DNA from: Okamejei kenojei
Lineage: Eukaryota
Length of the DNA: 64,000 nt
Direction: 5' to 3'
Assembly (NCBI GenBank): GCA_035221665.1
Contig: CM069157.1
Coordinates: 30,256,001 to 30,320,000 of the forward strand
The notes beneath the pieces were generated by a model. That model ran no database searches. It was not told where the DNA came from and saw nothing but the letters and a program-made list of their open reading frames with translations. The position numbers and the translations under genes were made by a program. How positions within the stretch are numbered: position 1 is the first letter of the stretch; each line of letters starts with the position of its first letter. Of the stretch, positions 3,303 through 60,958 are shown one piece after another.

Positions 3303-3967
3303 CGAGGAGGAGCCCGAGGGCTGAGGGAGCGTTAGGTAGGGGAGGAGACAGCAAGGGTTAACAGAATTGAGAGAATTCGATGTGTTTGCCAAGAGGATGC
3401 AGTCTCCCCAAGCAGAATTTGAGGTGCTGTTCCTCCAATTTGCGGTGTTGCTCACTCTGGTCGTGGAGGAGGCCCAGGACAGAGAGGTCGGATATGGAAT
3501 GGGAGGGGGAGTTGAAGTGCTGAGCCACCGGGAGGTCGGGTTGGTTAATGCGGACCGAGCGGATGTGTTCAGCGAAACGATCGCCAAGCCTCCGCTTGGT
3601 CTCATCGATATAGATCAGCTGACATCTAGAGCAGTGGATGCAATAGATGAGGTTGGCGGAGGTGTAGGTGAACCTCTGTCGGACCTGGAACGACTGCTTG
3701 GTTCCTTGAATGGAGTGGAGGGGGGAGGTAAGGCGACAAGTGTAGCATCACTTGTGGTTGCAAGGGAAAGTGCCCGGGGAAGGGGTGGAGCGGGAGGGAA
3801 GGGAAGAATTGACAAGGAAGTTGCAGAGAGAGCGGTCTTTGCAGAAGACAGACGGGGGGGTGGGAGATGGGAAGATGTGGCGAGTGGTGGGGTCACGTTG
3901 TAGGTGGCGAAACTGGCGGAGGACTATGTGTTGTATGTGCCGGCTGGTGGGGTGAAAGGTGAGGACC
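3303..3967 (-). mobile_element. Penelope-like element 3' fragment (GIY-YIG endonuclease region)
   Basis: Reverse complement closely matches ~31510-32165. Minus ORF 3748-4002 contains LTFHPTSRHIQHIVLRQFRHLQRDPTTRHIFP. Confidence 0.9.
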
Positions 3968-4186
3968 ATGCGGGCTGGCGGGCTTTTCACGTATTCCCTC
4001 ATTTCAACTTCTCATAAAATAAAGATCAAACTTCAAATGGTAAGTTCTCGTTTAATCTTTCTACTAACTTTCTATTGTGTGCTGCTATCTTCCTTGGAAC
4101 CAATTATTAATCCAACTTGCTGCTTTCTTTTGGATCACTTGGTCTTTCAGTTCCCTCATAAACCTGCCAAATAAGCCTTCGTCAAA

Positions 4187-4872
4187 TAGAACGTAGAACA
4201 TAGAACATAGAAAAATACAGCACAGGAACAGGCCCTCGGCAAGCAATGTCTGTGCTGATCATGATGCCAAACTAATCTCCTCTGCCTACATATGATCCAT
4301 TCCTGCATATACTAAAAGCCTCTCAAAAGCCACTGTTGTGTTTTCCTCCACCACTACTCCTGGCAGCACGTTCCAGGCACCCACAACCCTCTGTGTAATA
4401 TAAATGTGCCCCACGCATCTCCTTTGAACCCACCTCTTCACCTTAAAGCTCTGCCCTCTCTTTGACAATTCCACCCTGACGAACAAGGTCCTGACTGTCT
4501 ACCCTATCTATGCTTCTCATAATTTTTATACTCAGACCTGTGTCGCTCCAGAGAAACAATCCAAGTTTGTCCAAATGCTCCTTACAGCTAATACCTTCTA
4601 ATCCAGGCATTCTGATAAACCTCTTGCAATGGGACGTCCAAAATTGTACACAATACACCAAATGCGGCTTAACCAAAGTTTTCTAAAGTTGCATCAGTAC
4701 TTCTTGACTCTCATGCTCAATGCCCCGACAAATGAAGGCAGGCATTCCATACACCCTCTTTACCAATTTATCGACTTGCGTTGCCACTTTCAAGGAGCTA
4801 TTGGCTTGGACACCAAAATATCCCACTGTACCTCAATACTTTTAAGAGTCTTGCCATTAACTGTATGCTGTG
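4187..4872 (-). mobile_element. CR1/HER1-type LINE 3' fragment
   Basis: (TAGAACA)n tail. Minus-strand peptides VKPHLVYCVQFW and QRVVGAWNVLPGVVVE are typical of the CR1 ORF2 C-terminus. Confidence 0.85.
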
Positions 4873-5329
4873 TCATTCTAACTCCCATGGTGACCATGTC
4901 AAATATGCTACTCTATTTAATCCTCCTAGTTCCTCCTTACATTATTCAGTCATTTTAGTGAGATACAACACTTTCTTAGTAGATCTGTGACAATGTTGTT
5001 GGTGCTTTGAGGTCCTCAGTTGCAGCCAGAGACAACTGAGAAATAGTAGACAGAGCTGGAGGGATTTCCCCCTCTGTTGCCTTTACAAGCCTGTGCTACA
5101 GTTTATCTGGCCCTGGTAATTCATCCATCATTGAAGATGATTCATAGTAATTCATCCCCTCTCTCTATATCTCTTTATTAATTCCAGACATTTGCATTGT
5201 TTCTCCTTAATGTGACTATCATCTCCCACTTCTGTCAAAATAACCCAATAAATTAATTTACAACTATCCATGTTTACTGCCTCCGCACCCAGACTATGGT
5301 TTTGCTCTGCTGAGTTTTACTTTATGATA

Positions 5330-5990
5330 GTGGCATTTAAAATTATTTTAGATATACAGGGAATGAATGGATATGGATCACATGTAGTCAGAGGAGATTA
5401 GTTTAACTTGGCATGGACATTGTGGGCCGAAGGGCCAATTCCTGTTCTATGTCCAGTTTTGGTCCCCTAATTTGAGGAAGGACATTCTTGCTATTGAGGG
5501 AGTGCAGCGTAGGTTTACAAGGTTAATTCCCAGGGATGGCGGGACTGTCATATGCTGAGAGAATTGAGCGGCTTGGCTTGTACTCTCTGGAGTTTAGAAG
5601 GATAAGAGGGGATCTTATTGAAACATATAAGATTGGACACGCTAGAGGCAAGAAACATGTTCCCGATGTTGGGGGAGTCCAGAACCAAGGGCCACAGTTT
5701 AAGAATAAGGGGTAAGCCATTTAGAACGGAGATGAGGAAACACATTTTCTCACAGAGAGTGGTGAGTCTGTGGAATTCTCTGCCTCAGGGGGAGGTGGAG
5801 GCAGGTTCTCTGGATGCTTTCAAGAGAGAGCTGGATAGGGCTCTTAAAGATAGCGGAGTCAGGGCGATATGGGGAGAAGGCAGGAACGGGGTACTGATTG
5901 GGGATGATCAGCCATGATCACTTTAAATGGCGGTGCTGGCTCGAAGGGCCGAATGGCCTACTCCTGCACCTATTGTCTATTGTCTATTGT
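5330..5990 (+). mobile_element. CR1-type LINE 3' fragments (two adjacent)
   Basis: ESRTKGHSLRIRGKPFRTEMRKHIFSQRVVSLWNSLP; ends in a (TATTGTC)n tail. Confidence 0.9.
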
Positions 5991-6444
5991 TCCATTTTTC
6001 CTTCATCTTATTATTCTTCCATTTTATTAAAAATGCTCTCACTTCCTTTGAAAAGCCAAGAGCTTGCATGAAAAGCTAAAACTGCATTATCTTGGCTGTC
6101 TACTTATACAGTTTGAGATTTTACCCTATTTCTACCTTAACCTTCAGGAGACAAGAACTAGGTTGGAACGTCAAATTTCCCTCTGTTCATCAGGCAGTTT
6201 TTTCTGAGTTTGCCATTTGATTTTTTGATGCTAGTCCTGCCTTGGGGTCATGCATCGATCTTGTGACTATCTTATGACTGTCCATAGTTACAACCTTGTA
6301 GTGAGTGATCGGCATTGTCAGAGAGGAGGCCAAGTTGAGGGAGCGCAGATAGCTGGTAGAATTACTATACGATACGATATGATAGAACTTTATTCATCCC
6401 CAGATGGAAATTGGTCTGCCAACAGTCACTACACACAAGAGTCA

Positions 6445-6570
6445 CGACCCTTCTTCAGTCCCGACCCGAAACGTCACCTATCCATTTTTCTCCAGAGATG
6501 CTGCTTGACCCGCTGAATTACTTCAGCATTTTGTGTCTATCTTCGGCATAAACCAGCATCTGTAGTTCCT
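6445..6570 (+). repeat. Penelope pLTR-derived hammerhead module (rearranged 5' end)
   Basis: CCGACCCGAAACGTCACC...AGATGCTG...CCAGCATCTG matches the pLTR at 32355-32446. Confidence 0.75.
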
Positions 6571-7139
6571 TTTTATTGCATCAGAGTAATGGAATTAGTT
6601 GAGAAGGACTGGAATTGGGCAGGGATGAAGTCATGATGGCTGTGTGGTGACAACAACTTGAATCGTTATTTTTAAGGAAAAGTATAAGGATAATGCCCAG
6701 TGAAACTGGCTTGCAAGTATTCAATCTGAAATAAAAATAAAATTCTGGATAGATAATATCTGTAGAGAGAGCAACAGAACTAATGTTTCAGGTCAACGAT
6801 TTTTCAACAGAATTCAATGATGCTCCTTCATAATTCTATATTCTTCATAATGAGTAACATTTTCATGCCGTCTGGAACTGCGTGTCTGACGAAAATAATA
6901 AAGAGACCAAGATCAGAGTCCTAGGAAGCAGATCATTCATCTTCTCAGAACACTAATTCTGCTGGCACATAAAATGTTCCCTTTTAGTTTTGAAAGTTTG
7001 GCAGTGCTGGCTCAAAAGGCCGAATGGCCTACTCCTGCACTTATTGTCTATTGTCTATTGTATGGAATAACTCTCAATATTAAGAGATATTTATTTCCTG
7101 CAAATTAAGCAGAGTTCAGGTTGATTCCATGTTGGTCTT

Positions 7140-8178
7140 CTTTAGTTTATTTTAGTTTAGAGTTGCAGCGCGGAAACAAGCCCTTTGACCCACCGAGTCC
7201 ACGTCGACCAGCGATCCCCGGACGCTAACACTATTCTACACACACTAGGAAAAATGTACAATTTTACTCAGCCAATTAGCCTACAAACCTGTTTGGCTTT
7301 AGAGTGTGGGAGGAAACCAGAGCTCCCGGAGAAAACCCACGCAGGTCACTAGGAGAACTTACAAACTCAGTACATACATCACCCATAGTCGGGATCGAAC
7401 CCGGGTCTATGGCGCCCCTTCTCTTTCTCGTAGTACATTGGATATTCCTCACTGAACTAAAATTTGTGTGCATGGTGAAAATTTGCAGATATAATATTTT
7501 TGCAATCTTTTTTGATTGATTGAAAGATACTGCATGAAAACAGGTCCATATACTAACCAAGTCCACGCCGACCATCGATCACCCGTTCGCTCTAGTTCTA
7601 TGTTATCCCACTTTCTCATCCACCCACTACACATTAGGGGCAAGTTTACTGAGGCCAATTAACCTACAAATCCACACGTCTGTGGGATGTGGGAGGAAAC
7701 CGGTGCACCTAGTGAACAATCGCATACAGTCACAGGGAGAACGTGGAAACTCCACACAGACAGCATGCAAAGTCAGAGTCAAACCTGGATGTCTGGCGCT
7801 GTGAGGCAGCAGCTCTACCAGCTGCACCACTGCGCTTTCAATGCAGAATCTGACAATCACCTCCCATCAGAAGAACAAATACAACTGCAGCACAACTGGT
7901 GGAGCTAATGCCTCACTACGCCAGGGAACCGGAGTTGATCCTGACCTCGGGTGCTATCTGTGTGGAGTTTGTGCGTTCTCCCTGTGACCGCATGGGTTTC
8001 CTCCGGGTGCTCTGGTTTCCACCCACATCCCAAAGACATGCAGATTTGTAGGTTAATCGGTCTCTTATGTGGATGCAAAAGTGAAATAACACAGAACTAG
8101 TGTGAATGGTGGTCGATGGTCGGTGTGGACTTGATCAGCTGAAGGGCCTGTTTCCATGTGGTCTCCTTCAATCAATCA
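7140..8178. mobile_element. Cluster of three HE1-like tRNA-derived V-SINEs (7140-7415 -, 7520-7832 -, 7885-8178 +)
   Basis: tRNA-like head (GGTAGAGCTGCTGCCTCACAGCGCCAG...GGTTCGATCC), V-domain-like core (GGTTTCCTCCCACA..CCAAAGAC), CR1-derived tail (GAAGGGCCTGTTTCC). Confidence 0.85.
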
Positions 8179-8939
8179 CAAAATGGAGAATGGGATTAAT
8201 GGGATTGCTGGCTCTGGCAGCCGACCATAGATATCGTGGGCCAAATGGCTTCCTTCTGTGCTGTTTTTAGGTAAACTCTCTCTCCTTAGTGACCACTCTT
8301 ACAAAGCTTGAAAGGATATGCTCTATTTTTTTTGTGCATTAAAAAAAAGAAACACAGACCATCACAACTCCTGTAATAATTGGGAAAATGCATTGCCAAG
8401 ACCAAAGATGAAGGTGTTGGAATCATTTACTGTATGTTAGGCAGAGATCCCCTTATAAGCAAAGGGCACATCCCGTCTCACTAGCCTGGGGTGTAGTGTG
8501 AAGGTATATCCCACAGGCAAAACGCAAACGATGGAAGCTAACGGGAAAATTCCATTTGCATGTGTTTCTTTCCGAGATCCTAGGATGTGGAGGTCACAAG
8601 CAAGGTTGGAATTTATGGTTCATCCCTGGATCTCTCCGAGTAGGTGTGTGAATCACTGTGGTCTTGCGTTGTGAACATACTCCTTCCACAATGCTGTTAG
8701 ATGGTGAGTTCCAGGACATTGACCCAGCATTAATAAAACACGCTTACCGTAAAATTATAAACCCATCGATGACTCTGATACAACCTGCACCTTGTGAAAA
8801 ATCCTCCCTCATTATTTGACTCATTTAACTTCACTGGTGTGAAATATAAAATGTCAGCGCACTGTTCTATTGCTCAAATAATTGCAGGTTTCTTAAAATT
8901 ACCTCATATTTAGTTTCATTTTCAATTTATTTTGGGGGT

Positions 8940-9225
8940 AGCTATGCACTGGTACCAAAGGCAGGATTTATTGCCATGTCCCTAATTGCCTCTGAGTTGC
9001 GTGGCTGGTTGGGGCAGTTCAGAATCAAGCAAATAGGTCAGGCCAAGCAAGGATGGCTAATTTCCTACATTAAAGGACATCAGCGAACAAGATTAGTTTT
9101 TAACGACAATTCAATGGTTCTCGTTACCGACGACTAGATTTATTTTTTTTAAATTCCAGATTATTGACTGTGTTTAAAATCCACAGCTGATATGGTGGGA
9201 TGTGAATTTAGATTGTTGAATCAGA
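8940..9225 (-). mobile_element. Old elasmobranch SINE with SlmI/MetaSINE-like core (degraded)
   Basis: CAAGGATGGCTAATTTCCTACATTAAAGGACATCAGCGAACAAGAT resembles the reverse complement of the core GGTTCACTAATGTCCTTTAGGGAAGGAAATCTGCCGTCCTTA as I recall it; not searched. Confidence 0.45.
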
Positions 9226-11686: not shown

Positions 11687-13284
11687 ATTTTCATTTTCAA
11701 ACGACATTAAGGGCACTCAAGGTCAGTAAAACCACACTCACAGATTTGTAGACATGTGTTCAGTGTTATTCACAGCTCAGACTGAGAGACATGACCTTCT
11801 TGCTCCCCCATCTTGCAGAGACTGACTGAGGCACTCAATACTTCCGGGTTTTATAGTCCCTCCGCAAGGGGAGTGGCCTTCAGGAGAGAGAATCTCAACA
11901 TTTTTAAAACACTAATAACTCTTTATTTTTATGCGATGGGAAAAATCCTCTTGGCCTGCGCAGCGGAGGGGGACTCTGAGTAAGATGGCCAAAAATCACA
12001 GCTGTAAGTGGCAGCTTTTTTTCTAAAATGAATATACAGAACAACAGGAAATGGTCAAGATCAGACTTTTAGTAATATAGATATGGGCCATAGATAAAGT
12101 GTATGTCACAGACTCTCTTTCCCCAACTAGCAGAGTCTAAAGAGGGTATAGATTTAAGGTGAGAGAGGAAAGATTTAAAAGGGAGCTGAGGGGCAACTTT
12201 TCTCATCGTGGGCATGTGGAACGTACAGCCAGAAAAAGTGATAGAGGCAGTACAATTACCAGGTTAAAGAGCATTTGGACAGGTACATGGTTCAGAGAGG
12301 TATGAGCCAAATGCAGGAGAGTGGGACTAGCTCAGCTGGACATCTTGATCTGCATGGATGAGTTGGTTTCTGGGTATGCTTCTGTGCTGTATAATTGTGT
12401 GACTGTATGAGTATTAGTTGGATCTCCGAATTGCTTGGGGAGTAACTGTTACCTCACCATCGCACTCGAGCCAATTACATGTTTTCTCATTTGCTGTGGC
12501 AGTAGTTTGAAAAGTCCATCATAACACATTATTCATACTAAACAAGTTCTTGGTGAAAGCAAGGCTAGTGTCTGTACATGTTAAAGATTCCTGAGCAGAT
12601 GTGACAGCTTCTACTTGGATTTGGTTTGGCAACTTTAACACTTGTCTGGATCCAGGCGGTACTGAAAGATCAGTCAGATTTCTACCATTTCAGCATCTGC
12701 GAAAAATGTCCTTTCATCAGTCTGGGTACCAGGTTGCGAGGAAACAAAATGCAGAGGAACTTACAGGTTTGCCTCTTTCTGTGTGAATCTTGAATATTTC
12801 TGACGAAGGCACAAAAATGGTCACACCCACTGAGTTACTCCAGCACTTTGTGTCTATCTTTGGTATAAAAAACTAACATCTGCAGTTCATTGTTTCCACA
12901 TGCCGTCTTCTTCACTGTGAAATCTCCTCAGGGTATGTCTCCTTTGAAGAAGTTATCCTCCTCTCTCTGACGGGAGTTTGCAACACCCTCTCTCACCGCT
13001 CCCCCTCTGTGTGGCTCCAGTTCTTCACCTCCCCTCTCCACCTCCTGCTTTCAGTCTGAGGACGGGTCCCGACCTGAACCGTCAGCCGAATCTCAACCTG
13101 CCTGCTGTCAGGAATGTGAGCAAATGGCATCCACACTGTCAATTGTCTTCATACATCAGCTGGGATCCAGCGCTACCAAAAACTCAACCTCATTAGTGAC
13201 CTTCGGATTATCTTTGATCAGTCTTTACTGGCTTTATCCCCGTATCATGTATCTAGACACTGTAAATGGCTTGATTGTTATTAT

Positions 13285-18879: not shown

Positions 18880-19205
18880 AGAACTACAGACGCTGGTTTG
18901 TACCGAAGATAGACACAAGGTGCTGGAGTAAATCAGCGAGTAAGGCAGCATCTCTGGAGAAAAAAGATGGGTGACGTTTCGGGTCGGAACCCTTCTTCAG
19001 AATGAAAGTAGAGGGGAGGGAACCGGAGGTAGGAGAAGGCCAGAACAAATCACAGGCAACAGATGACCAAGGAAGGATGGAGCACACAATGGTCAATTGT
19101 TGGCTGGGGGGGATAAAAAAGTGTTGGGTTGTAAGCTGCCCAAGTGAAATATGGGGTACAGTTCCTCCAATTTACATCAGGCCTCACTCTGACAGTGGAG
19201 GAGGC
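18880..19205 (-). mobile_element. Penelope 3' end/pLTR fragment with intact hammerhead core
   Basis: 18973-19000 on the minus strand reads CTGAAGAAGGGTTCCGACCCGAAACGTC. Confidence 0.8.
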
Positions 19206-19651
19206 CCATGACAGGTGCCTCCAAAAATAAACTATATTTAATACCGCAGGACTATGTTACACTGGTGCCATAAAGAAATAAATCAGCCCATGTTCCTGTT
19301 TACTACTTATAAATAAGCAGTGATCAATGAAAGTGATTGGTTCGATCTTTCATCTAACCTGAGTCTCAGCATAGTGTCACTTTTGTTAATAAGGTTTTGG
19401 ATAATACAGTCTTGAGCAAAACAATAAGTGCTAGAGAACTCAGCAGGTCAGGCAGTGTCCGTGGTTGGAATAGGCAGACGATGTCCCCCTAGTCTTTACA
19501 TTTCACTCCTCCTCTCTCCTTATCTGACATCCTTTTGTCTCCCCTTCATCTCTAGCCTTTGTTGCATAGGTTACCTTCTAAAATATTTTACTTCTTTTAT
19601 GATAACTTCCTAAAAGAATCAGAGAAAACCTGAAGGAATAATCCTGCCAAA

Positions 19652-27984: not shown

Positions 27985-28480
27985 GCCAGTGACCCAGGTC
28001 TGATCATGAGCTTGGGTGCTGTCGGTGTGGAGTTTGCGCGTTTTCGCTATGTACACGTGGGTTTCCTCAGGGTGCACCAATGTCTTCCCACATCCTAAAG
28101 AGGTGCCGGTTTGTAAGTTAAAGATAGGCACAAAGTGCTGGAATAATGCAATGGGTCAGGCAGCATCTCTGGAGGAAAAGAATGAATGACCTTTTGGGTT
28201 GGGACCCTTCTTCGGACTGAAGATGGGTCCCGACTCGAAATGTCACACATCCTTTTTCTCCAGAGATGCTGGCCCACTGTTATTCCAGCACGTTGTGTCT
28301 ATCTTCAGTATAAACCAACATAGGCAGTTCATTGTTTCTACAGGTTTATAGGTTAATTTGCCTCTGTAAATTGCCCGTACTGTGTAGGGATATAAAAGTG
28401 TGATAGCATAGAACTAGTGTGAGTGGGTGATGGACTTAGTGGGATGAAGTGCTTAATTCCATGTTGTTACTCTAAACTAA
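27985..28480 (+). mobile_element. HE1-like SINE split by an inverted+forward hammerhead-module insertion (28122-28342)
   Basis: TSD GGTTTGTAAGTTAA (28108-28121) / GGTTTATAGGTTAA (28343-28356). Confidence 0.8.
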
Positions 28481-29384
28481 ACATCATATTGACCTCAACA
28501 GAACACGATAATTTAAAAATCAAAAAAGCAGCAGATGCTGGAAATGTGAACAGAAAAAGGTTGAAATATTTTGCTGTTCTGTCGGTCTCTGTGGAGACAG
28601 GAAACACAGTTGAAGTTTCAGGTCGATGTCCTTTAATGAGGAATTCCTGAATATTTTGTTTTTATTCTAGCTGATCATGCTGTAGGCAGGGGTGGGAGGC
28701 TGAACGGCTCCTGCTTTCCCTGGATATACCAGCACTATTGTCCCAGCAGCCAGAAGTTGGACCCCTAGATGGAGCCAAAAAATGGGAGACCTGTTCATGC
28801 TCTTATCTCATAGATGCATCAAAAAAATTATTTGTTTTAATTTAACACAACACCATCCCGCTTCTTGCTGTTGACGTATTTATTGCACGGACCATTTTTG
28901 TTGTTATATGATATTTAGAATACTTTGAATAAAATTACAGCAATTTTTTGATTGACAAAAGGTACATATTTCTGAGAAAAAAAATTGTAAATCGAAATGG
29001 CTGGGGCTGATTCATGGGTGGGTATATTAGTACATGGAATCGCGTGGGCAGAAAGAGATGTGCTATTTTGTATAATGTAAAACTAACTTGTAATTCAAAG
29101 GCATGCATTCCCAAAGAGGCAATGGCATGATGGGGTCAAGGAAAGAGCGTTCACGTCGCGGCCCTGCCCTCACCAATCTTCCCACCATCACGCACAAGAA
29201 GAGACAAGACAGACAACATTGTGTGCAGATGCCGAGAAGTGTGCTCAGCTCTGGCTGAACAACTTCTAATCTTGTGTGTGGACTCGATAAAGAGAAGAAT
29301 GGCATGATAGCAAAGATTTTGTAACGGGGAAGTTTGTAAATTGAGGAATACCTGCACCCAGAGCATACGGACTTGCTTGCTACT

Positions 29385-29495
29385 GAAGTCTGCTACTGGA
29401 GTCTGAAAGAAGGTCTCGACCCGAAACGTCGCCTATCTCCTTCGCTCCTTAGATGCTGCTGCACCCGCTGAGTTTCTCCAGCTTTTTTGTGTACC
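29385..29495 (+). mobile_element. Stand-alone hammerhead module with 13-bp TSD
   Basis: CTTGCTTGCTACT at 29372-29384 and 29496-29508; body nearly identical to 32355-32446. Confidence 0.85.
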
Positions 29496-29639
29496 CTTGC
29501 TTGCTACTCCCATGGTCCCAGTGCTTCTGGTCGCCCAGGTATCTCCTCATGCTGTTTGGCATGAACAATGTGCCGTGGAATTGATGACAAAGCCTTAAGT
29601 GGGGGAACAGTCTGAGTCAGGTAACAGGGAGTTATAATG

Positions 29640-29880
29640 TGTATGAAGGAACCGCAGATGCTGGTTTAAATCGAGGATAGCCACAAAATGCTGGAGTAAC
29701 TCAGCGGGACAGGCAGCATCTCTGGAGAGAAGGAAGGGGTGGCGTTTCGGGTCAAGACCCTTCTTCAGACTGATGTCAGGGAAGTGGGAGGTACATAGAT
29801 AAGGAAGTGTATAGATAAGGAAGTGAAAGGTGTGAAAACAGGACAAAGGGAATGTAGATCAAGGAAAATGTAGAAATGTA
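29640..29880 (-). mobile_element. Penelope pLTR fragment with hammerhead-like core (GUC mutated to GCC)
   Basis: GGCGTTTCGGGTCAAGACCCTTCTTCAGAC followed by purine-rich 3'UTR sequence. Confidence 0.8.
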
Positions 29881-30336
29881 GAATACAACAGGGAGATATA
29901 GACAGGCCAGAACAAACCCCACCTGCCATACCCCACTGGAGATAAGACAGCTCCCCCGTGTTGTAAACTGTCACAGCTTGAAACACTGTATATATTCCTG
30001 AATGTAACTGATATTCAGAATCATTTATAAAATATTAACAATGAAATAATATTAAAAATATTGTATATCTGCCCACAAAAATCAATGAAGACCATTCAAA
30101 ATATAAACATTAAAGAAATCACAAACAATTACGAGAAAGGAGCTGAGCTTATTTGCTTATGTTTTCTGACTGTCTTATAGCTGTCACTGAAATTATTTCA
30201 GCAACACAGTTCATGTATCAGATCTACCCAGTGCATGATCAATCAGCAGAGTCTCCATGGTCAGTGCAGGTGGGAACTCGCCCAACACGTTTGAAATTGT
30301 TTCACCTGACGAGGAATCCTCAAACCCTTCAGCACG

Positions 30337-32120
30337 AGGTGCCGTGGTAGTCTGGCGCGTCGATCTCTACAAAGCGGAGGCCACGCGCCAACTCTCGGAC
30401 ACCTCCTCCTACTTACCCCTGGACCATGACCCCACTGACGAACACCAGGCCACCATCTCGAGCACCTTAACCGACTTCATCAGCTCCGGCTCCCTACCCC
30501 CCCGAGCCTCCGACCTCATCGTTTCCCAGCCCCGCACGGCCCGATTTTACCTTCTCCCCAAAATCCACAAACCCGACTGCCCTGGCAGACCCATTGTCTC
30601 TGCCTGTTCGTGCCCCACCGAACACAGTTTCCACATTACCTTGACGCCATCCTATCTCCCTTTGTTAAATCCCTCCCCACCTATGTTCAAGACACCTCAG
30701 ACACTCTCCGTCGGCTCCGTGCATTCCATTCTCCAGGCCCCCATCCTCTCATCTTTACCATGGACGTTCCAGTCACTCTACACCTCCACCCCCACCAGGA
30801 CGGTCTCAAAGCCCTCCGGTTTCTTCCTCGACCAGAGGAGCAACCCATACCCGTCCACTGACACCCTTCTCCGCCTAGCAGAGTTGGTCCTCACCTCAAT
30901 AACTTCTCTTTTGATTCCTCCCATTTCCTCCAAACACAAGGCGTAGCTATGGGCACACGCATGGGCCCCAGCTACGCTTGCCTCTTTGTTGGGTACGTCG
31001 AACAATCCTTGTTCTCGGCGTACCAGGGGCCCCATCCCCGACCTCTACCTCCGTACATCGACGACTGCTTTGGTGTCACCTCCTGCACCCACACACAACT
31101 GACTGACTTCATTCATTTCACCACCAACTTCCATCCGGCACTCAAATACACTTGGACCATTTCCGACATTTCCCTACCATTCCTTGACCTCACCATCTCT
31201 ATTGCAGGTGATACGCTCCTGACCGACATCACTACAAAACCAACTGACTCCCACAGCTACCTGGACTACTCTTCCTCCCACCCTGCTTCCTGTAAGGACT
31301 CCATCTCCTATTCCCAATTCCTCGTCTACGCCGCATGTGCTCCCAGGATGAGGTGTTCCACACCAGGTCATCACAAATGGCCTCATTCTTCAGAGAACGG
31401 GCATTCCCCTCCCCCACTATTGATGAGGCTCGCACCAGGGTCTCCTCCATACCCCGCAACACTGCCCTCGCTCCCCATTCCCCACTCGCAAACAGGGCAG
31501 AGTCCCCCTGGTCCTCACCTTTCACCCCACCAGCCGGCAAATACAAACATATAGTCCTCCGCCAGTATTCGCCACCTCCAACGTGACCCCTCCACCCCCA
31601 CATCTTCCCATTTCCCCCCCTGTCTGCCTTCCGCAAAGACCGCTCCATCCGCAACTCCCTTGTCAATTCTTCCCTCCCCTCCCGCTCTAAACCCCTTCCC
31701 CGGGCACTTTCCCTTGCAACCGCAAGAAATGCAACACTTGTCCCTTCACCTCCCCCCTCCACTCCTTTCAGGGACCCAAGCAGTCCTTCCAGGTCCGACA
31801 GAGGTTCACCTGCACCTCCTCCAAACCTCATCTACTGCATCCGCTGCTCCAGATGCCAGATGATCTATATCGGTGAGACCAAGCGGAGGCTTGGCGATCG
31901 CTTCGCCGAACACCTCCGCTCGGTCCGCAATAACCAACCCGACCTCCCGGTGGCTCAGCACTTCAACTCCCCCTCCCATTCCGTATCCGACCTCTCGGTC
32001 CTGGGCCTCCTCCACGGCCAGAGTGAGCAACACCGCAAGTTGGAGGAACAGCACCTCATATTCCGCTTGGGGAGTCTACATCCTTTGGGCTTGAACATTG
32101 AATTTTCTCAATTCTGTTAA
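30337..32120 (+). pseudogene. PLE reverse transcriptase/GIY-YIG ORF with multiple single-base frameshifts
   Basis: Consecutive ORF pieces (30257, 30610, 30949, 31335, 31860) each carry PLE motifs; ends GLNIEFSQFC*. Confidence 0.9.
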
Positions 32121-32354
32121 CCCTTGCTGTCTCCTCCCCTTCCCACCTCTCCCTCAGCCCTCGGGCCCTGGCATTCCCTCTATCTCTATCTCCCTCCCCC
32201 ACCCCAGTCGCACCAGCTTCTCATTTTCACACCACAAACAGCTTACAATGGCTTGTTCCCTTTATCATCGATACTTTTTTGCATATCTTTCATTCATTGT
32301 TCCTTATCTCTCCACATCACCGTCTATATCTCTCGTTTCCCTGATCCCTGACCA

Positions 32355-32386
32355 GTCTGAAGAAGGGTCTCGACCCGAAACGTCGC
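32355..32386 (+). ncRNA. Minimal type-I hammerhead ribozyme motif in the PLE pLTR
   Basis: CTGAAGA (32357-63), extra A, stem II GGGTC-TC-GACCC, GAAA, palindromic ACGT minimal stem III, predicted cleavage after GTC at 32384. Confidence 0.75.
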
Positions 32387-32452
32387 CTATCTCCTTCGCT
32401 CCTTAGATGCTGCTGCACCCGCTGAGTTTCTCCAGCTTTTTGTGTAAGCACG

Positions 32453-32710
32453 TTTAGTTTAGTTTAGTTTAGTTTAGTTTAGAGATACAGCGCGAAGCCA
32501 GGCCCTTTGGTCCACCGGGTCCGCACCGACCAGCGATCCCCACACATTAATACTATCCTACACACACTGGGAACAATTTGCACTTATACCAAGCCAATTA
32601 ACCTACAAAACTGTACGCCTTTGGAGTGTGGGAGGAAACGGAAGATCTCGGCGAAAACCCACACAGTCACGGGGAGAACGTACAAACTCTACCACTGCTC
32701 CACTGTGCTG
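32453..32710 (-). mobile_element. HE1-like SINE with (TTTAG)n tail
   Basis: Tail and core as in other copies; head partly deleted. Confidence 0.85.
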
Positions 32711-33744: not shown

Positions 33745-35215
33745 TACTCAAGATAGACACAAAGTGCTGGAGTATCTCAGTGGGTCAGGCAGCAAGGAAC
33801 CCTCCTTCAGACTGAAGGTTGAAGGGAGGGAACTGGAGGTAAGAAAAGGCCAGCACAAAGCAGTGGCAGCAACAGATGACCTAAGAAGAGTGGAGCCCAG
33901 ATGGTCCATTGTTGGCTGGCGAAAACGTCATACTGATGTGATACAAGGATGCAAACAGTGGAACTAGTATGATGACTAGGGTGGGGGTGGGAGGGAGGAA
34001 ATGCAAGGTTTACTTGAAATAATAGAAATCACCGTTCACACCGATGGGTTTTTTACTGCCCAAGCGAAATACGAGGTGCTGTTCCTCCAATCTGGCAGTG
34101 GGGGAGGCTGAGGACGGAAAGGTCAGTATGGGAATGGGAAGGGGAGTTTGGCAACTGGGAGATCACATAGGCCAAGGTGGACTGAACATAGGTGTTCAGC
34201 GAAACGATCACCGAGGCAGCACTTGGTCTCGCCGACATATAGGAACCCACACCTAGACCAATAGATACAGTAGATAAGGTTTGAGGACGTGCAAGTGAAT
34301 TACTGCTTTATCTAAAAGGACTGTTGGAGTCCTTGGATGGTCGAGGAAGGGGGTATAGGGACAGGTGTTGTATCTCCTGCAGCTGCAGGGGTTAGTACCT
34401 ATGGAGGGGGTGGTTTGACAATAGACAATAGACAATAGACAATAGGTGCAGGAGTAGGCCATTTGGCCCTTCGAGACAGCACCGCCATTCAATGTGATCA
34501 TGGCTGATCATCCCCAATCGGTACCCCGTTCCTGCCTTCTCCCCATATCCCCTGACTTTGCTATTTTTAAGAGCCCTATCTAGCTCTCTCTTGAAAGCAT
34601 CCACCACCCTCTGAGGCAGACAATTCCACAGACTCACCACTCTCTGTGAGGAAAAGTGTTTCCTCGTCTCCGTTCTAAATGGCTTACTCCTTATTCTTAA
34701 ACTGTGGCCCCTGGTTCTGGACTCCCCCAACATCGGGAACATGTTCCCTGCCTCTAATGTGTAACAATCTTATATGTTTCAATGATATCACCTCTCATCC
34801 TTCTAAACTCCAGAGTGTACAAGCCCAGCTGCTCCATTCTCTCAGCATATGACAGTCCCGCCATCCCGGGAATTAACCTTGTAAACCTACGCTGCACTCC
34901 CTCAATAGCAAGAATGTCCTTCCTCAAATTAGGGGACCAAAACTGCACACAATACTCCAGGTGTGGTCTCACTAGGGCTCTGTAGGGTGGGAAGGGATAG
35001 TGGGAAGAGATGAGTGAAGCGGTGAGTTGCAGAGGGAACGGTCTCTGCAGAAAATAGAAAGGGGTAGAGATGGAAAGGTGTAACTAGTGGTGGGATCCCG
35101 TTGGAGGTGGCAACAATATTGGAGGATGTGTTTGATGTGACAGCTGATGGGGTAAAAGGTGAGGACTAGGGGGACTCTGTCGATGTTATGACTGGGGGGA
35201 GGGGGAGCAAGAGCA
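33745..35215 (-). mobile_element. Older Penelope 3' fragment interrupted by CR1 (34418-34984)
   Basis: GIY-YIG-region similarity to 31500-32100 on both sides of the CR1; pLTR remnant at 33750-33813. Confidence 0.8.
34418..34984 (-). mobile_element. CR1 LINE 3' fragment
   Basis: RPHLEYCVQFWSPNLRKDILAIEGVQRRFTRLIPG; (GACAATA)n tail. Confidence 0.9.
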
Positions 35216-38317: not shown

Positions 38318-40277
38318 ATAGACAATAGACAATAGGTGCAGGAGTAGGCCATTTGGCCCTTCGAGCCAGCACCGCCATTCAATGTGATCATGGCTGATCA
38401 TCTCCAATCAGTACCCCGTTCCTGCCTTCTCCCCATATCCCCTGACTCCGCTATTTATAAGAGCCCTATCTAGCCCTCTCTTGAAAGTATCCAGAGAACC
38501 TGCCTCCACCGCCCTCCGAGGCAGCGAATTTCACAGACTCACCACTCTCTGTGAGAAAAAGTGTTTCCTCGTCTCCGTTCTAAATGGCTTACTCCTTATT
38601 CTTAAACTGTGGCCCCTGGTTCTGGACTCCCCCAACATCGGGGAGTCCCAATTCTACGTACAAATTTAATGTACACAGTGTTTGAAGCATGTAAATATCT
38701 ACTTTTATTTTAAATGCAATTCCTTGATGTGTAAAAGCCTGAATTACATGCATTTTATCATTAAGTGGAGCATAGAGCAAAGAGACATATTGCATGGAAA
38801 CAGGACCTTTGGCACATTGAGTCTATACTGACAACAGACAACCACTTACACTAAGCCTATATTAGCACACAGAATATTGAGCATAGAACAGTACAGCATG
38901 GAAACAGGACCTTCAGCCATTGAGTCCACACCAGTCACAAGCACTTATTTACACTCCTCCTATGCATAGAATATAGAACGCAAACCTTTGTATAAAATCA
39001 TGAGAAGAATTGATTGGGTAGATGCACAGTCTCTTGCCCAGAGTAGGGGAATCGAGGACCAGAGGACATAGGTTCAATGTGAAGGGGAAAAGATTTAAAA
39101 GGAATCTGAAGGGTAACTTTTTCACACAAAGGGTGGTGGATGTATGGAACAAGCTGCCAGAGGAGGTAGTTGAGGCTGGGACTATTGCAACGTTTAAGAA
39201 ACAGTTAGACAGGTACATGGATAGGACAGGTTTGAAGGGATATGGACCAAGCGCAGGCAAGTTGGACTAGTGTAGCTGGGACATGTTGGCCGGTGTGGGC
39301 AAGTTGGGCAGAAGGACCTGTTTCCACGTATCACTCTATGTCTCCATCACTATGACCGTGCCCTTGATGTCTGTGCTGAATATGATGCCAAATATTAACC
39401 CCATCTTTCCCCCCACATTCTCATCAATAACCCTATTTTGAATTTGTGTAAAAATCGGTGTTTTGTATCTCTTCCATTTTGAACTCCATTGATGCTATAA
39501 TACAAAGAGTGCATTTCGTGATAATCTTTTCTAGATAGTCAGCCAAATTCAAGAGGCCTCCTCCACTGTCAGAGTGAGGCCACACGCATATTGGAGAAAT
39601 AACACCTCATATCCCGCTTGGGCAGCTTACATCCCAGCAGCATGAATATTGCATTCCCCCTCTCTCCATCCCTCCCCCACCCTCGTAGGCCTGCTAGTTA
39701 CACTGTTTATACCTTCGTTATTACCTCCTGCACAGCCAACAATGGACCTTTGTGGGCTCCTCAGTGCCGGCTCTGATTTAAACATAGAAACATAGAAATT
39801 AGGTGCAGGAGCAGGCCATTCGGCCCTTCGAGCCTGCACCGCCATTCAATATGATCATGGCAGATCATCCAACTCAGTATCCTGTACCTGCCTTCTCTCC
39901 ATACCCCCTGATCCCTTCAGCCACAAGGGCCACATCCAACTCCCTCTTAAATATGGCCAACGAACTGGCCTCAACTACCTTCTGTGGCAGAGAATTCCAC
40001 AGATTCACCACTCTCTGTGTGAAAAATGATTTTCTCATCTCGGTCCTAAAGGACTTCCCCCTTATCCTTAAACTGTGACCCCTTGTCCTGGACTCCCCCA
40101 ACATCGGGAACAATCTTCCTGCATCTAGCCTGTCCAACCCCTTAAGAATTTTGTAAGTCTCTATGAGATCACCCCTCAATCTTCTAAATTCCAGCGAGTA
40201 CAAGCCGAGTCTATCCAGTCTTTCTTCATATGGAAGTCGTGCCATCCCAGGAATCAGTCTGGTGAACCTTCTCTGTA
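38318..40277. mobile_element. Cluster of CR1 3' fragments (38318-38645 -, 38990-39345 +, 39780-40277 -) and a short PLE 3' piece (39555-39780 +)
   Basis: ESRTRGH...FFTQRVV..WN.LP in each CR1; the PLE piece reads HLISRLGSLHPSSMNIAF. Confidence 0.85.
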
Positions 40278-58916: not shown

Positions 58917-60958
58917 ATGGAGGTAGGTGGGTCTGGTTATTGTCGAAACATATTGAGTGAGAATTACCTACCAGTTGGGGGGAGGTTACACTGGTTTCTG
59001 AAAGAATGGTATGAAATAACATGAAACTTGTTTATACTGCAAAGTATACAAGGGTTTTGAATTGAATTTATTCCCAATTTGTGTCCACCCACACAGCATA
59101 TACCAGAGCGGGCACTCGTTTTCTCACAAAACGAGAATTTGGAGGTAGAAGCTGAAATTGGAAAATTATATTTAAAAGGTGTAATTGAGAAGACAGTTTA
59201 TCAAACTCACCAATTCGTATCTAATATTTTTTCTAGACCAAAGAAAGATGGTGGGAGTTGGATTATTTTGGACCTGACAGGACTTAATCCGTTTGTGCAG
59301 TATAAATATTTTAAAATGGAAACATTTGCTACTGCCAAGCAATTGGTTTCCAGAGGGTGTTATATGGCATGTATCGATCTTAAGGATGCATATTACTCAG
59401 TGCCTGTTCATAAAGAGTATCGGAGATATTTGAAATTTAGCTGGATGGGGCAATTATGGCAATTTAAAGCACTGCCTAATGGGTTAACCTCAGCCCCTAG
59501 ATTATTTAAAAAGCTGCTAAAACCAGTACTGAGGTTACTCCGGGCTCAGGGTCATATCGTAATGGCTTATTTGGATGACATCTTAATAATTGGAAAAACC
59601 CGGGAGGCAGCTGAGTTATCGATTTCAGCTGTTAAACTCATGTCAAAATTAGTACCGGTTAAAGTAATTGACTATTTGGGATTTTCAGTTAATTCAACTC
59701 ACATGTCTGTGACTCTGCCCAAGGGCAAGGGATTAGATTTAATTGAAGGCTGCATCATGCTCTTGGTGGAGTAATCACCATCAATTAGACATGTGGCCAG
59801 CTTGATTGGCAAATTGGTAGCTGCCTTTCCAGCTGTGCAGTATGTACCTTTGCATTACCAAAATTTACAGAGGGCAAAGGTACAGGCACTCAGGGTACTT
59901 GCAGGTCATTTCAGCAGGCCCATGAAATTACCATCTGAAGCCATTGCTGAAGTACAGCGGTGGATAAGAAACATTTCAAATTGTTCTTGCAAAATTCTGA
60001 TGGAAGCTCCTTCAGTTGTTTTGCAGACTGATGTTAGTGCCCTAGGTTGGAGTGCTACTGATACCATTTCTAGCTGTGGAGGCAGATGGAATATGCATGA
60101 GGCATGTATTCTCCAATCACATGGAATTAATTATTTAGAGCTTTTGGGAGCATTTTACGGGCTCAAGGCTTATTGTATCACCAAGCATCACTTACATGTT
60201 CAGCTTCAGATTGACAACACCATGGCAATGGCGTATGTTAATCACATGGGTGGAATCAAGTCAGAATCTTGTGACAGATTGGCTAACCTTATTTGGCACT
60301 GGTAGATTAAAAATAACATTTGGGTTTCAGCTGTCTACTTGCCAGACAGATTCAATATGGTGTCAGACACCAGGTCACGCAAATTCAACGACAACAGTGA
60401 GTGGATGTTGAATCATGATGTATTTAATGAAGGGTACACAAAAGGCTGGAGAAACTCAGCGGGTGCAGCAGCATCTAAGGAGCGAAGGAGATAGGCGACG
60501 TTTCGGGTCGAGACCCTTCTTCAGACTCGATTCTCCAGCATCTGCAGTTCCTTCTTTAACATGTATTTAATGACATTGTTCTCCGGTATGGGATGCCAGA
60601 TATCAATTTGTTTGCATCCAGACTCAATCACCAGGTATAGAAGTATGTTTCATGGGAACCAGATCCAGGGGCAGTAGTGGTAGATGCGTTCTCACTACAC
60701 TGGGGCGGAGTGTTTTTATATGCATTTCCCCCATTCTGCCTCATCAGTCGGTGCTTGACCAAGATCAAGCAGGACTCCGCTCCAGGAGTTTTGATGGTAC
60801 CCAACTGGCCTACACAGCCATGGTTCCCTCTCATTTCGGACATTATTACACAGCCTATTATGGTGGTCCCAAAACGTCATGATCTGTTGGTGCACCCTGT
60901 GACTGGAGATCAACGCCCATTGTATGATCATATTAATCTGTTAATTTGCAGATTCTAA
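58917..60958 (+). pseudogene. DIRS pol: RT - RNase H - methyltransferase-like domain, with stops and a 130-bp insertion
   Basis: VGGRLHWFLKEW, IILDLTGLN, IDLKDAYYSVP, LPNGLTSAPRLF, YLDD; LQTDVSALGW, INYLEL, IDNTMAMAYVNHMGG; DINLFASRLN, DAFSLHW, YAFPPF, WPTQPWFP. Confidence 0.92.
60431..60560. mobile_element. 130-bp inverted+forward hammerhead-module insertion with perfect 13-bp TSD
   Basis: ATGTATTTAATGA at 60418-60430 and 60561-60573; intact core on the minus strand at 60497-60524. Confidence 0.92.

Follow-up and report, generated by a model that had tools for sequence, protein, structure and literature searches.

The question raised by this locus is whether the short hammerhead-bearing module at 32355-32446, which recurs throughout the window (the whole stretch of 64,000 nucleotides that was analysed), moves as an element of its own or derives from a larger one. 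The transposition of Penelope-like elements (PLEs) is poorly understood, and the many copies of this module may bear on it. We consider it probable that this module represents the terminal repeat of PLEs of the Neptune type, standing at both ends of full-length copies, and that its free and paired copies are aborted leader cDNAs.

As the preliminary description had it, the cited copy belongs to the 3’ end of a PLE, and it is not a solo module: it terminates a 5’-truncated Neptune-type PLE of 2.1 kb (30337-32446, plus strand), which we delimited from translations and by aligning its 5’ junction with three full-length copies. The element is framed by 6-bp target-site duplications (TSDs) of the sequence AGCACG (30331-30336 and 32447-32452, both plus strand). 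Directly after the right TSD lies a SINE-like repeat (32453-32695, plus strand) that we take to resemble the shark HE1 family. Other pieces of PLE body, 68-90% identical to the cited PLE, are found at 3312-3976, 19127-19212, 33986-34411, 35024-35215 and 39555-39655.

The ORF of the cited element is broken, and passes through RT motifs, a CX4CxxC linker and a GIY-YIG domain to a stop near 32119, followed by the 3’UTR and the terminal module. GIY-YIG in this copy gave a Pfam E-value of 1.2e-4, above the cut-off, and RVT_1 in its genomic relatives gave 5e-5 and 7e-6, below the cut-off; translation of such relatives yielded open stretches of 549 and 1009 residues, and a PDB search with the RT piece returned no match. 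A single ORF in which RT precedes a C-terminal GIY-YIG is the arrangement of EN+ PLEs, as is the layout of pLTR, inverted arm, one-sided tail and TSD. The RT-EN linker, CNRKKCNTC, agrees with the CX2-5CxxC motif of Neptune-type EN+ PLEs as defined in the accessible portion of PMC8557442. By sequence this linker points to Neptune type, with the qualification that Nematis has a linker motif too.

The module is also present at the 5’ end of 9 of the 40 RT-bearing loci that we fetched, where it runs into the ORF of a unit of ~3.99 kb. Since it occupies the 5’ end of full-length units as well as the 3’ end, the module is both leader and terminus. Three of these nine copies start at +4, +6 and +17 of the module, and six extend upstream into the pLTR. 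The leader as far as its first fixed 3’ end, a putative RT start site 1 (32385-32446, plus strand), includes an ATG at 32407. In each of the four (of nine) full-length copies that were translated, this ATG opens an upstream ORF of 57 codons; we rejected it as the start of the RT ORF because its frame closes after those 57 codons. The long ORF begins 112 nt downstream of this ATG, beyond the 37-nt tail. In one full-length copy (L133, 3569-3750) and in others, the upstream ORF overlaps the start of the long ORF in a different frame. Full-length copies also carry a donor-like AG|GTATG where the long ORF starts and, within the module, a pyrimidine tract-AG that resembles an acceptor; the RNA contigs of 4 of 24 runs (two probably DNA; uninformative) held no canonical splice joints or ends.

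The recurrence of the module in the window is borne out. BLAST or nhmmer found a match at all 27 of the positions that the preliminary description had listed, and where it had counted ~25 copies, a profile built from 107 genomic copies found 35. The same profile gave 311 matches in 664 kb sampled blind to the motif, and none in the reversed sequence that served as control. Forty random 10-kb stretches held 185 matches, from which ~1.3 million fragments are extrapolated to the 2.76-Gb genome; by this extrapolation, the module is present as roughly a million pieces, mostly decayed. An exact 36-mer of the module occurs 23,839 times genome-wide and a 28-letter core pattern 59,144 times (0 for the backwards-pattern control of each), whereas a 36-mer from the RT region has 1,035 exact copies. 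Core and stem II are intact in only 4 of the 35 window copies, and 34 core-keeping copies in 600 kb suggest that about 150,000 genome-wide may retain the core. Some insertions recur with identical flanks (L065-L069, G000:C1 6.65-6.76 Mb; L015 and L062), which suggests segmental duplications.

At the head of the module is a minimal type I hammerhead (32357-32384, plus strand), identified by sequence, that fits the min-HHR of PMC4209133. It comprises CUGA-A-GA (32357-32363), an extra A (32364), stem II (32365-32368 with 32373-32376), GAAA (32377-32380) and palindromic ACGU (32380-32383), with a predicted cut after C32384, all on the plus strand. The preliminary description had correctly assigned this motif to a PLE pLTR as its minimal hammerhead; the additional nucleotide that follows A9 is there, as is palindromic ACGT, and pair counts uphold the 2-bp stem I that it gave. 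The core of minimal type I hammerheads, CUGANGA-N-stem II-GAAA-palindrome-UH, is complete. Helix I, for which 4-5 bp would be expected, has 2 bp (U-A/U-G and G-C), and its third position is A-C in 228 of 392 copies. The comparison with Rfam hammerhead models that had been proposed returned no match at E<=1.

The ribozyme columns are nearly invariant among the four subfamily consensuses. All four have an intact core and an intact palindromic ACGU, and of 30 ribozyme columns a single one, located in loop II, is variable, compared with 18 of the 59 columns downstream (p=0.002); as read from the consensus alignment, this invariance is constraint in the master elements, whether as ribozyme, promoter or both. 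In the dispersed copies, for which we used a decay set of 392 (427 minus 35 selected by exact match), core, stem II and palindrome are all retained in 68. G12, part of a CpG, is changed in 24% of copies, like other CpGs, and stem II, invariant among the consensuses, shows mostly one-sided changes. When bases are matched, core G and T show no better retention than invariant columns downstream, and core A is changed in 5.4% of cases versus 8.6% for invariant downstream A (p=2e-4), a difference that possibly reflects ascertainment. Judged by these substitutions, the cores of dispersed copies decay like neutral DNA, core A slightly excepted.

Folding predictions do not yield a hammerhead as the ground state: stem II has a pairing probability of ~0.01 in the monomer (z 0.73), and a hammerhead-like fold is placed at -4.2 versus -9.5 kcal/mol for an alternative hairpin. 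Most dispersed copies are predicted to be inactive, and the suggestion that the genome has been seeded with potential cleavage sites is weak given the short stem I and this hairpin.

Of 95 exact-match sites examined, 83 belong to the youngest family. Among these, 58 are attached to PLE 3’UTR or ORF, with truncation points smoothly spread, and 25 start no more than 7 nt from the ribozyme, 15 of them as inversions and 10 as plain solos. Starts of young copies reach 2.3 per nt in the 0-10 bin versus 0.04-0.06 per nt at 51-1000 nt. TSDs of at least 8 nt accompany 6 of the 10 non-inverted solos and 21 of the 53 longer non-inverted young copies (control 1.3% for both). The preliminary description had proposed that the module inserts freely, and we do find the 95- or 130-nt module without PLE body and with its own TSD; the finding that it had set against itself, copies always attached to PLE sequence and lacking TSDs of their own, does not hold. 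One such young solo in the window (29400-29495, plus strand) carries 15 additional bases where its 5’ end joins the flank and has a 13-bp TSD, read by eye (29372-29384 and 29496-29508). Nearby, on the minus strand, a short truncated PLE of a sister subfamily ends in a module with tail (29635-29772).

Genome-wide counts sharpen the 5’ edge. Exact matches to family A fall from 22,238 for the core to 18,864 with one more upstream nucleotide, 16,583 with two and 13,495 with five, and stand at 11,908 at +17 (there with a core 2 nt shorter), that is, upstream losses of 15, 12, 6.6 and then 1.0% per nt. Thus 39% of the 22,238 exact young copies diverge within 5 nt upstream of the ribozyme, and the stepwise drop indicates an edge that is real but 5 nt wide. 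The zone where free copies begin (32350-32356, plus strand), defined by these counts and by an initiator-like YCA|GTC, contains an interrupted palindrome, CAG-T-CTG, and the A at 32354 that we infer to be the 5’ end of the PLE RNA. YCA|GTC is common to the four subfamilies although the sequence farther upstream differs, and it resembles the initiator (Inr) consensus given in the part of PMC5580651 available to us; a DPE-like element matches at only 4 of 5 positions. Starts at the predicted GUC cut are unenriched (3 of 311 profile matches and 1 of 80 young free copies). The 3’ ends are bimodal, with 51 of the 83 young copies ending at 90-103, 30 at 128-135 and 2 elsewhere. A cap-derived G at the 5’ junction is unsupported, as the 22 non-template bases comprise 10 G, 7 A and 5 T. 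A splice acceptor was rejected as the main cause of the 5’ edge because 3-7 nt of the supposed intron remain in several solos, and because there is no upstream exon that they have in common.

A third of copies sit head-to-head. Our pair survey covered 923 matches, drawn from 161 stretches (100 of them chosen for a young copy) and 27 short loci, and recovered 165 head-to-head and 13 tail-to-tail pairs. Both 3’ ends could be called in 107 pairs, with 58 unclassifiable ones left out and a few arms counted twice: 90 join a long to a short arm, 16 are short+short and 1 is long+long, where 52 mixed pairs would be expected (p=4e-14). The long arm is more often shortened on its 5’ side (p=1e-4), and junction starts cluster also at stem II (profile positions 13-17). 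Both arms belong to one subfamily in 94 of 103 pairs (34 expected), and a single TSD of at least 8 nt frames the whole pair in 30 of 74 (control 1%). The other 9 of the 103 mix subfamilies, and part of the pairs may thus have arisen by insertion into a copy already present. The window holds a short arm paired with an arm that has a tail (28102-28339) and a young minus-strand short arm joined head-to-head to an inverted tail-only arm (60418-60563), both annotated without strand. At ~1500 of locus L014, a young module has landed precisely where an older opposite-strand copy has its 5’ end, with a 4-bp duplication.

A single scheme probably accounts for these features. PLE transcription would start at the initiator-like site, 1-5 nt before the hammerhead, and the PLE protein would prime cDNA synthesis at two internal sites, ~95 and ~130 nt farther along. 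A start within the 3’ repeat would give ordinary 5’-truncated PLEs. Priming in the 5’ copy would lead to immediate run-off at the end of the RNA and leave a strong-stop solo of 95 or 130 nt, dead-on-arrival. Where both ends of the target break served as primers, one per site, two cDNAs would be joined head-to-head, often at a short palindrome. The hammerhead would be kept by selection only in master elements, and its cut would set no insertion ends. The scheme has precedents: in the anole Poseidon element two internal RT start sites bracket the tail, both DNA strands are extended, hammerhead cleavage is dispensable in vitro and RNA-seq ends are absent at the cut (PMC11167929), and the D. virilis Penelope pLTR holds an internal Inr/DPE promoter, according to the accessible text of PMC2377424. 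The comparison of RT start sites rests on the Poseidon mapping, and the element here is Neptune-type. We give even chances to the fuller version in which the roughly one million stubs preserve the transposition cycle as it runs in vivo: a dimeric RT twin-primes one RNA at two internal sites, starting from both ends of the target break, strong-stop cDNAs end at the cap, the hammerhead doubles as core promoter and these by-products outnumber full insertions as the main output. The leader-cDNA reading has its limits, in that the edge spans 5 nt where a single base would be sharper, a cap-derived G is in no excess, 15 of the 25 short starts are inversions and palindrome microhomology alone could draw junctions. 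Moreover, six of the nine full-length copies pass upstream of the proposed start, so read-through or template jumping is needed.

Alternatively, the 5’ pile-up could reflect stalling or resolution of RT at the palindromic ribozyme edge on read-through RNA, or antisense self-priming, and we regard this as unlikely. CAG-T-CTG and stem II are both palindromic, and the clustering of junction starts at stem II, the full-length copies that reach past the edge and the antisense self-priming proposed for head-to-head PLE structures (in the part of PMC3846280 accessible to us) would all agree with it. However, non-inverted solos pile up at the edge as well, where the upstream rate predicts less than one of the 83 within 7 nt and ten are seen. 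Self-priming by itself predicts no rule of one long and one short arm, which 90 of 107 pairs follow, and the conservation of YCA among the subfamilies exceeds the requirements of stem I.

Slightly less likely again is a SINE-like family in which the solo modules have transcripts of their own and are remobilised in trans. An unbiased sample of 309 copies (what remained after de-duplication lost two identical body-attached copies, the cited one included) comprises 167 free, 109 paired and 33 body-attached copies; as the 3’UTRs of old families may be missed, the free count is an upper bound. This excess of free over attached copies, with their TSDs, is what such a family would show, and a solo that includes the tail would have the start motif as well as both RT start sites. 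As far as the available portions of the two papers go, rotifer PLE terminal repeats suffice in trans (PMC3846280) and non-autonomous PLE derivatives are on record (PMC8557442). Against this, free and body-attached copies have the same consensus, equal divergence and no significant column in any of the four subfamilies, in a comparison of 372 copies that leaves room for small solo lineages. Two small mixed clusters were left out of it, and prior de-duplication had dropped 101 of 932 matches, mostly young attached ones. The only apparent variant cluster, a would-be core-less subfamily of 20 copies, was rejected as heterogeneous, a mix of independent deletions. As regards a Pol III head (tRNA/5S/7SL derived), the module gave no tRNA gene and no Rfam match. 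The SINE-like family of the preliminary description stands as to discrete ends and own TSDs and finds no support as to a separate source lineage, all four subfamilies being shared. Nothing points to such a lineage or to ribozyme-defined units.

The retrozyme-like element that had also been suggested, in which tandem transcripts would cleave as dimers, circularise and reinsert as ribozyme-defined units, is highly improbable: the intact core and palindromic ACGU of the four consensuses and the origin of vertebrate non-LTR retrozymes in PLE terminal repeats (as described in the accessible part of bioRxiv 2026.07.22.740005) favour it, but the units are unpermuted at the cut, with 5’ ends just after GUC in 3 of 311, same-strand neighbours within 300 nt that both start at the core involve only 10 of 309 copies, the predicted monomer scarcely forms stem II and prefers the alternative hairpin, and opposite-strand head-to-head arms yield no sense-sense dimer in one transcript.

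The window also holds a ~165-bp retroposon headed by a minimal HDV/CPEB3-like ribozyme (29132-29298, plus strand). Its Rfam CPEB3 match scores 28.2 bits, below the gathering threshold of 35. Copies start at a G run and end in an (AAG)n tail; the one in the window has an 11-bp TSD, and TSDs of at least 8 nt are found in 7 of 27 copies versus 0.3% in the control. Its 28-mer head has 506 exact copies genome-wide. This retroposon is a truer ribozyme-SINE than the hammerhead module.

If the leader-cDNA reading is true, the skate genome provides a very large natural read-out of PLE transposition, giving a predicted transcription start to within 5 nt and two RT start sites. The rule of one arm per site, which the existing in vitro system can test, would trace the inverted arm and the one-sided tail, features long noted, back to a single event. 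The massive numbers of single hammerhead motifs in vertebrate genomes would be explained as insertion by-products. The ribozyme, the element class and, qualitatively, the layout are already in print. Among the titles and abstract starts that we surveyed, with subscription papers and supplements beyond that scope, there was no fixed 5’ edge, PLE twin priming or strong-stop solo; nor was there an account of the skate family, which Repbase/Dfam and the supplements of PMC4209133 and the bioRxiv paper may hold.

The module resembles several known systems. With the min-HHRs of PMC4209133 it shares the absence of a real helix III, palindromic 15.2/16.2, an extra base at 9/10.1 and G10.1-C11.1, and their genomic habit is similar: thousands of single motifs per vertebrate genome, probably truncated PLEs, with opposite-strand pairs noted. 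PLE minimal hammerheads have low activity in vitro (PMC4209133). Compared with the same report, helix II has 4 bp and helix I 2 bp here, the latter as in D. virilis; the sequence is homogeneous across subfamilies, and the copy number is two orders of magnitude above the 4,000-9,000 of coelacanth and Xenopus. The non-LTR retrozymes, in the part of bioRxiv 2026.07.22.740005 available, likewise have a type I hammerhead, an origin in PLE terminal repeats and dispersed monomers, but consist of tandem units each with a hammerhead, which are rare here. The EN+ PLE insertion unit, as the accessible portions of PMC8557442 and PMC3846280 describe it, consists of a pLTR, an inverted 5’-truncated copy and an optional one-sided tail of 30-40 bp; the skate copies match it in their inverted arms, 37-nt tail at one end, TSDs, partial tandems and CX2-5CxxC linker, and differ in that a bare 95- or 130-nt end with a fixed 5’ edge dominates and in that the one-long-one-short rule is quantified. 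A further such system is the anole Poseidon element PAc (Frangieh 2024, PMC11167929). Its ORF starts in stem II, whereas in the skate element the module is overlapped by an upstream ORF of 57 codons and the long ORF follows the tail; in both elements, two fixed 3’ ends bracket the tail downstream of the hammerhead, and the cleavage site is unused as an end.
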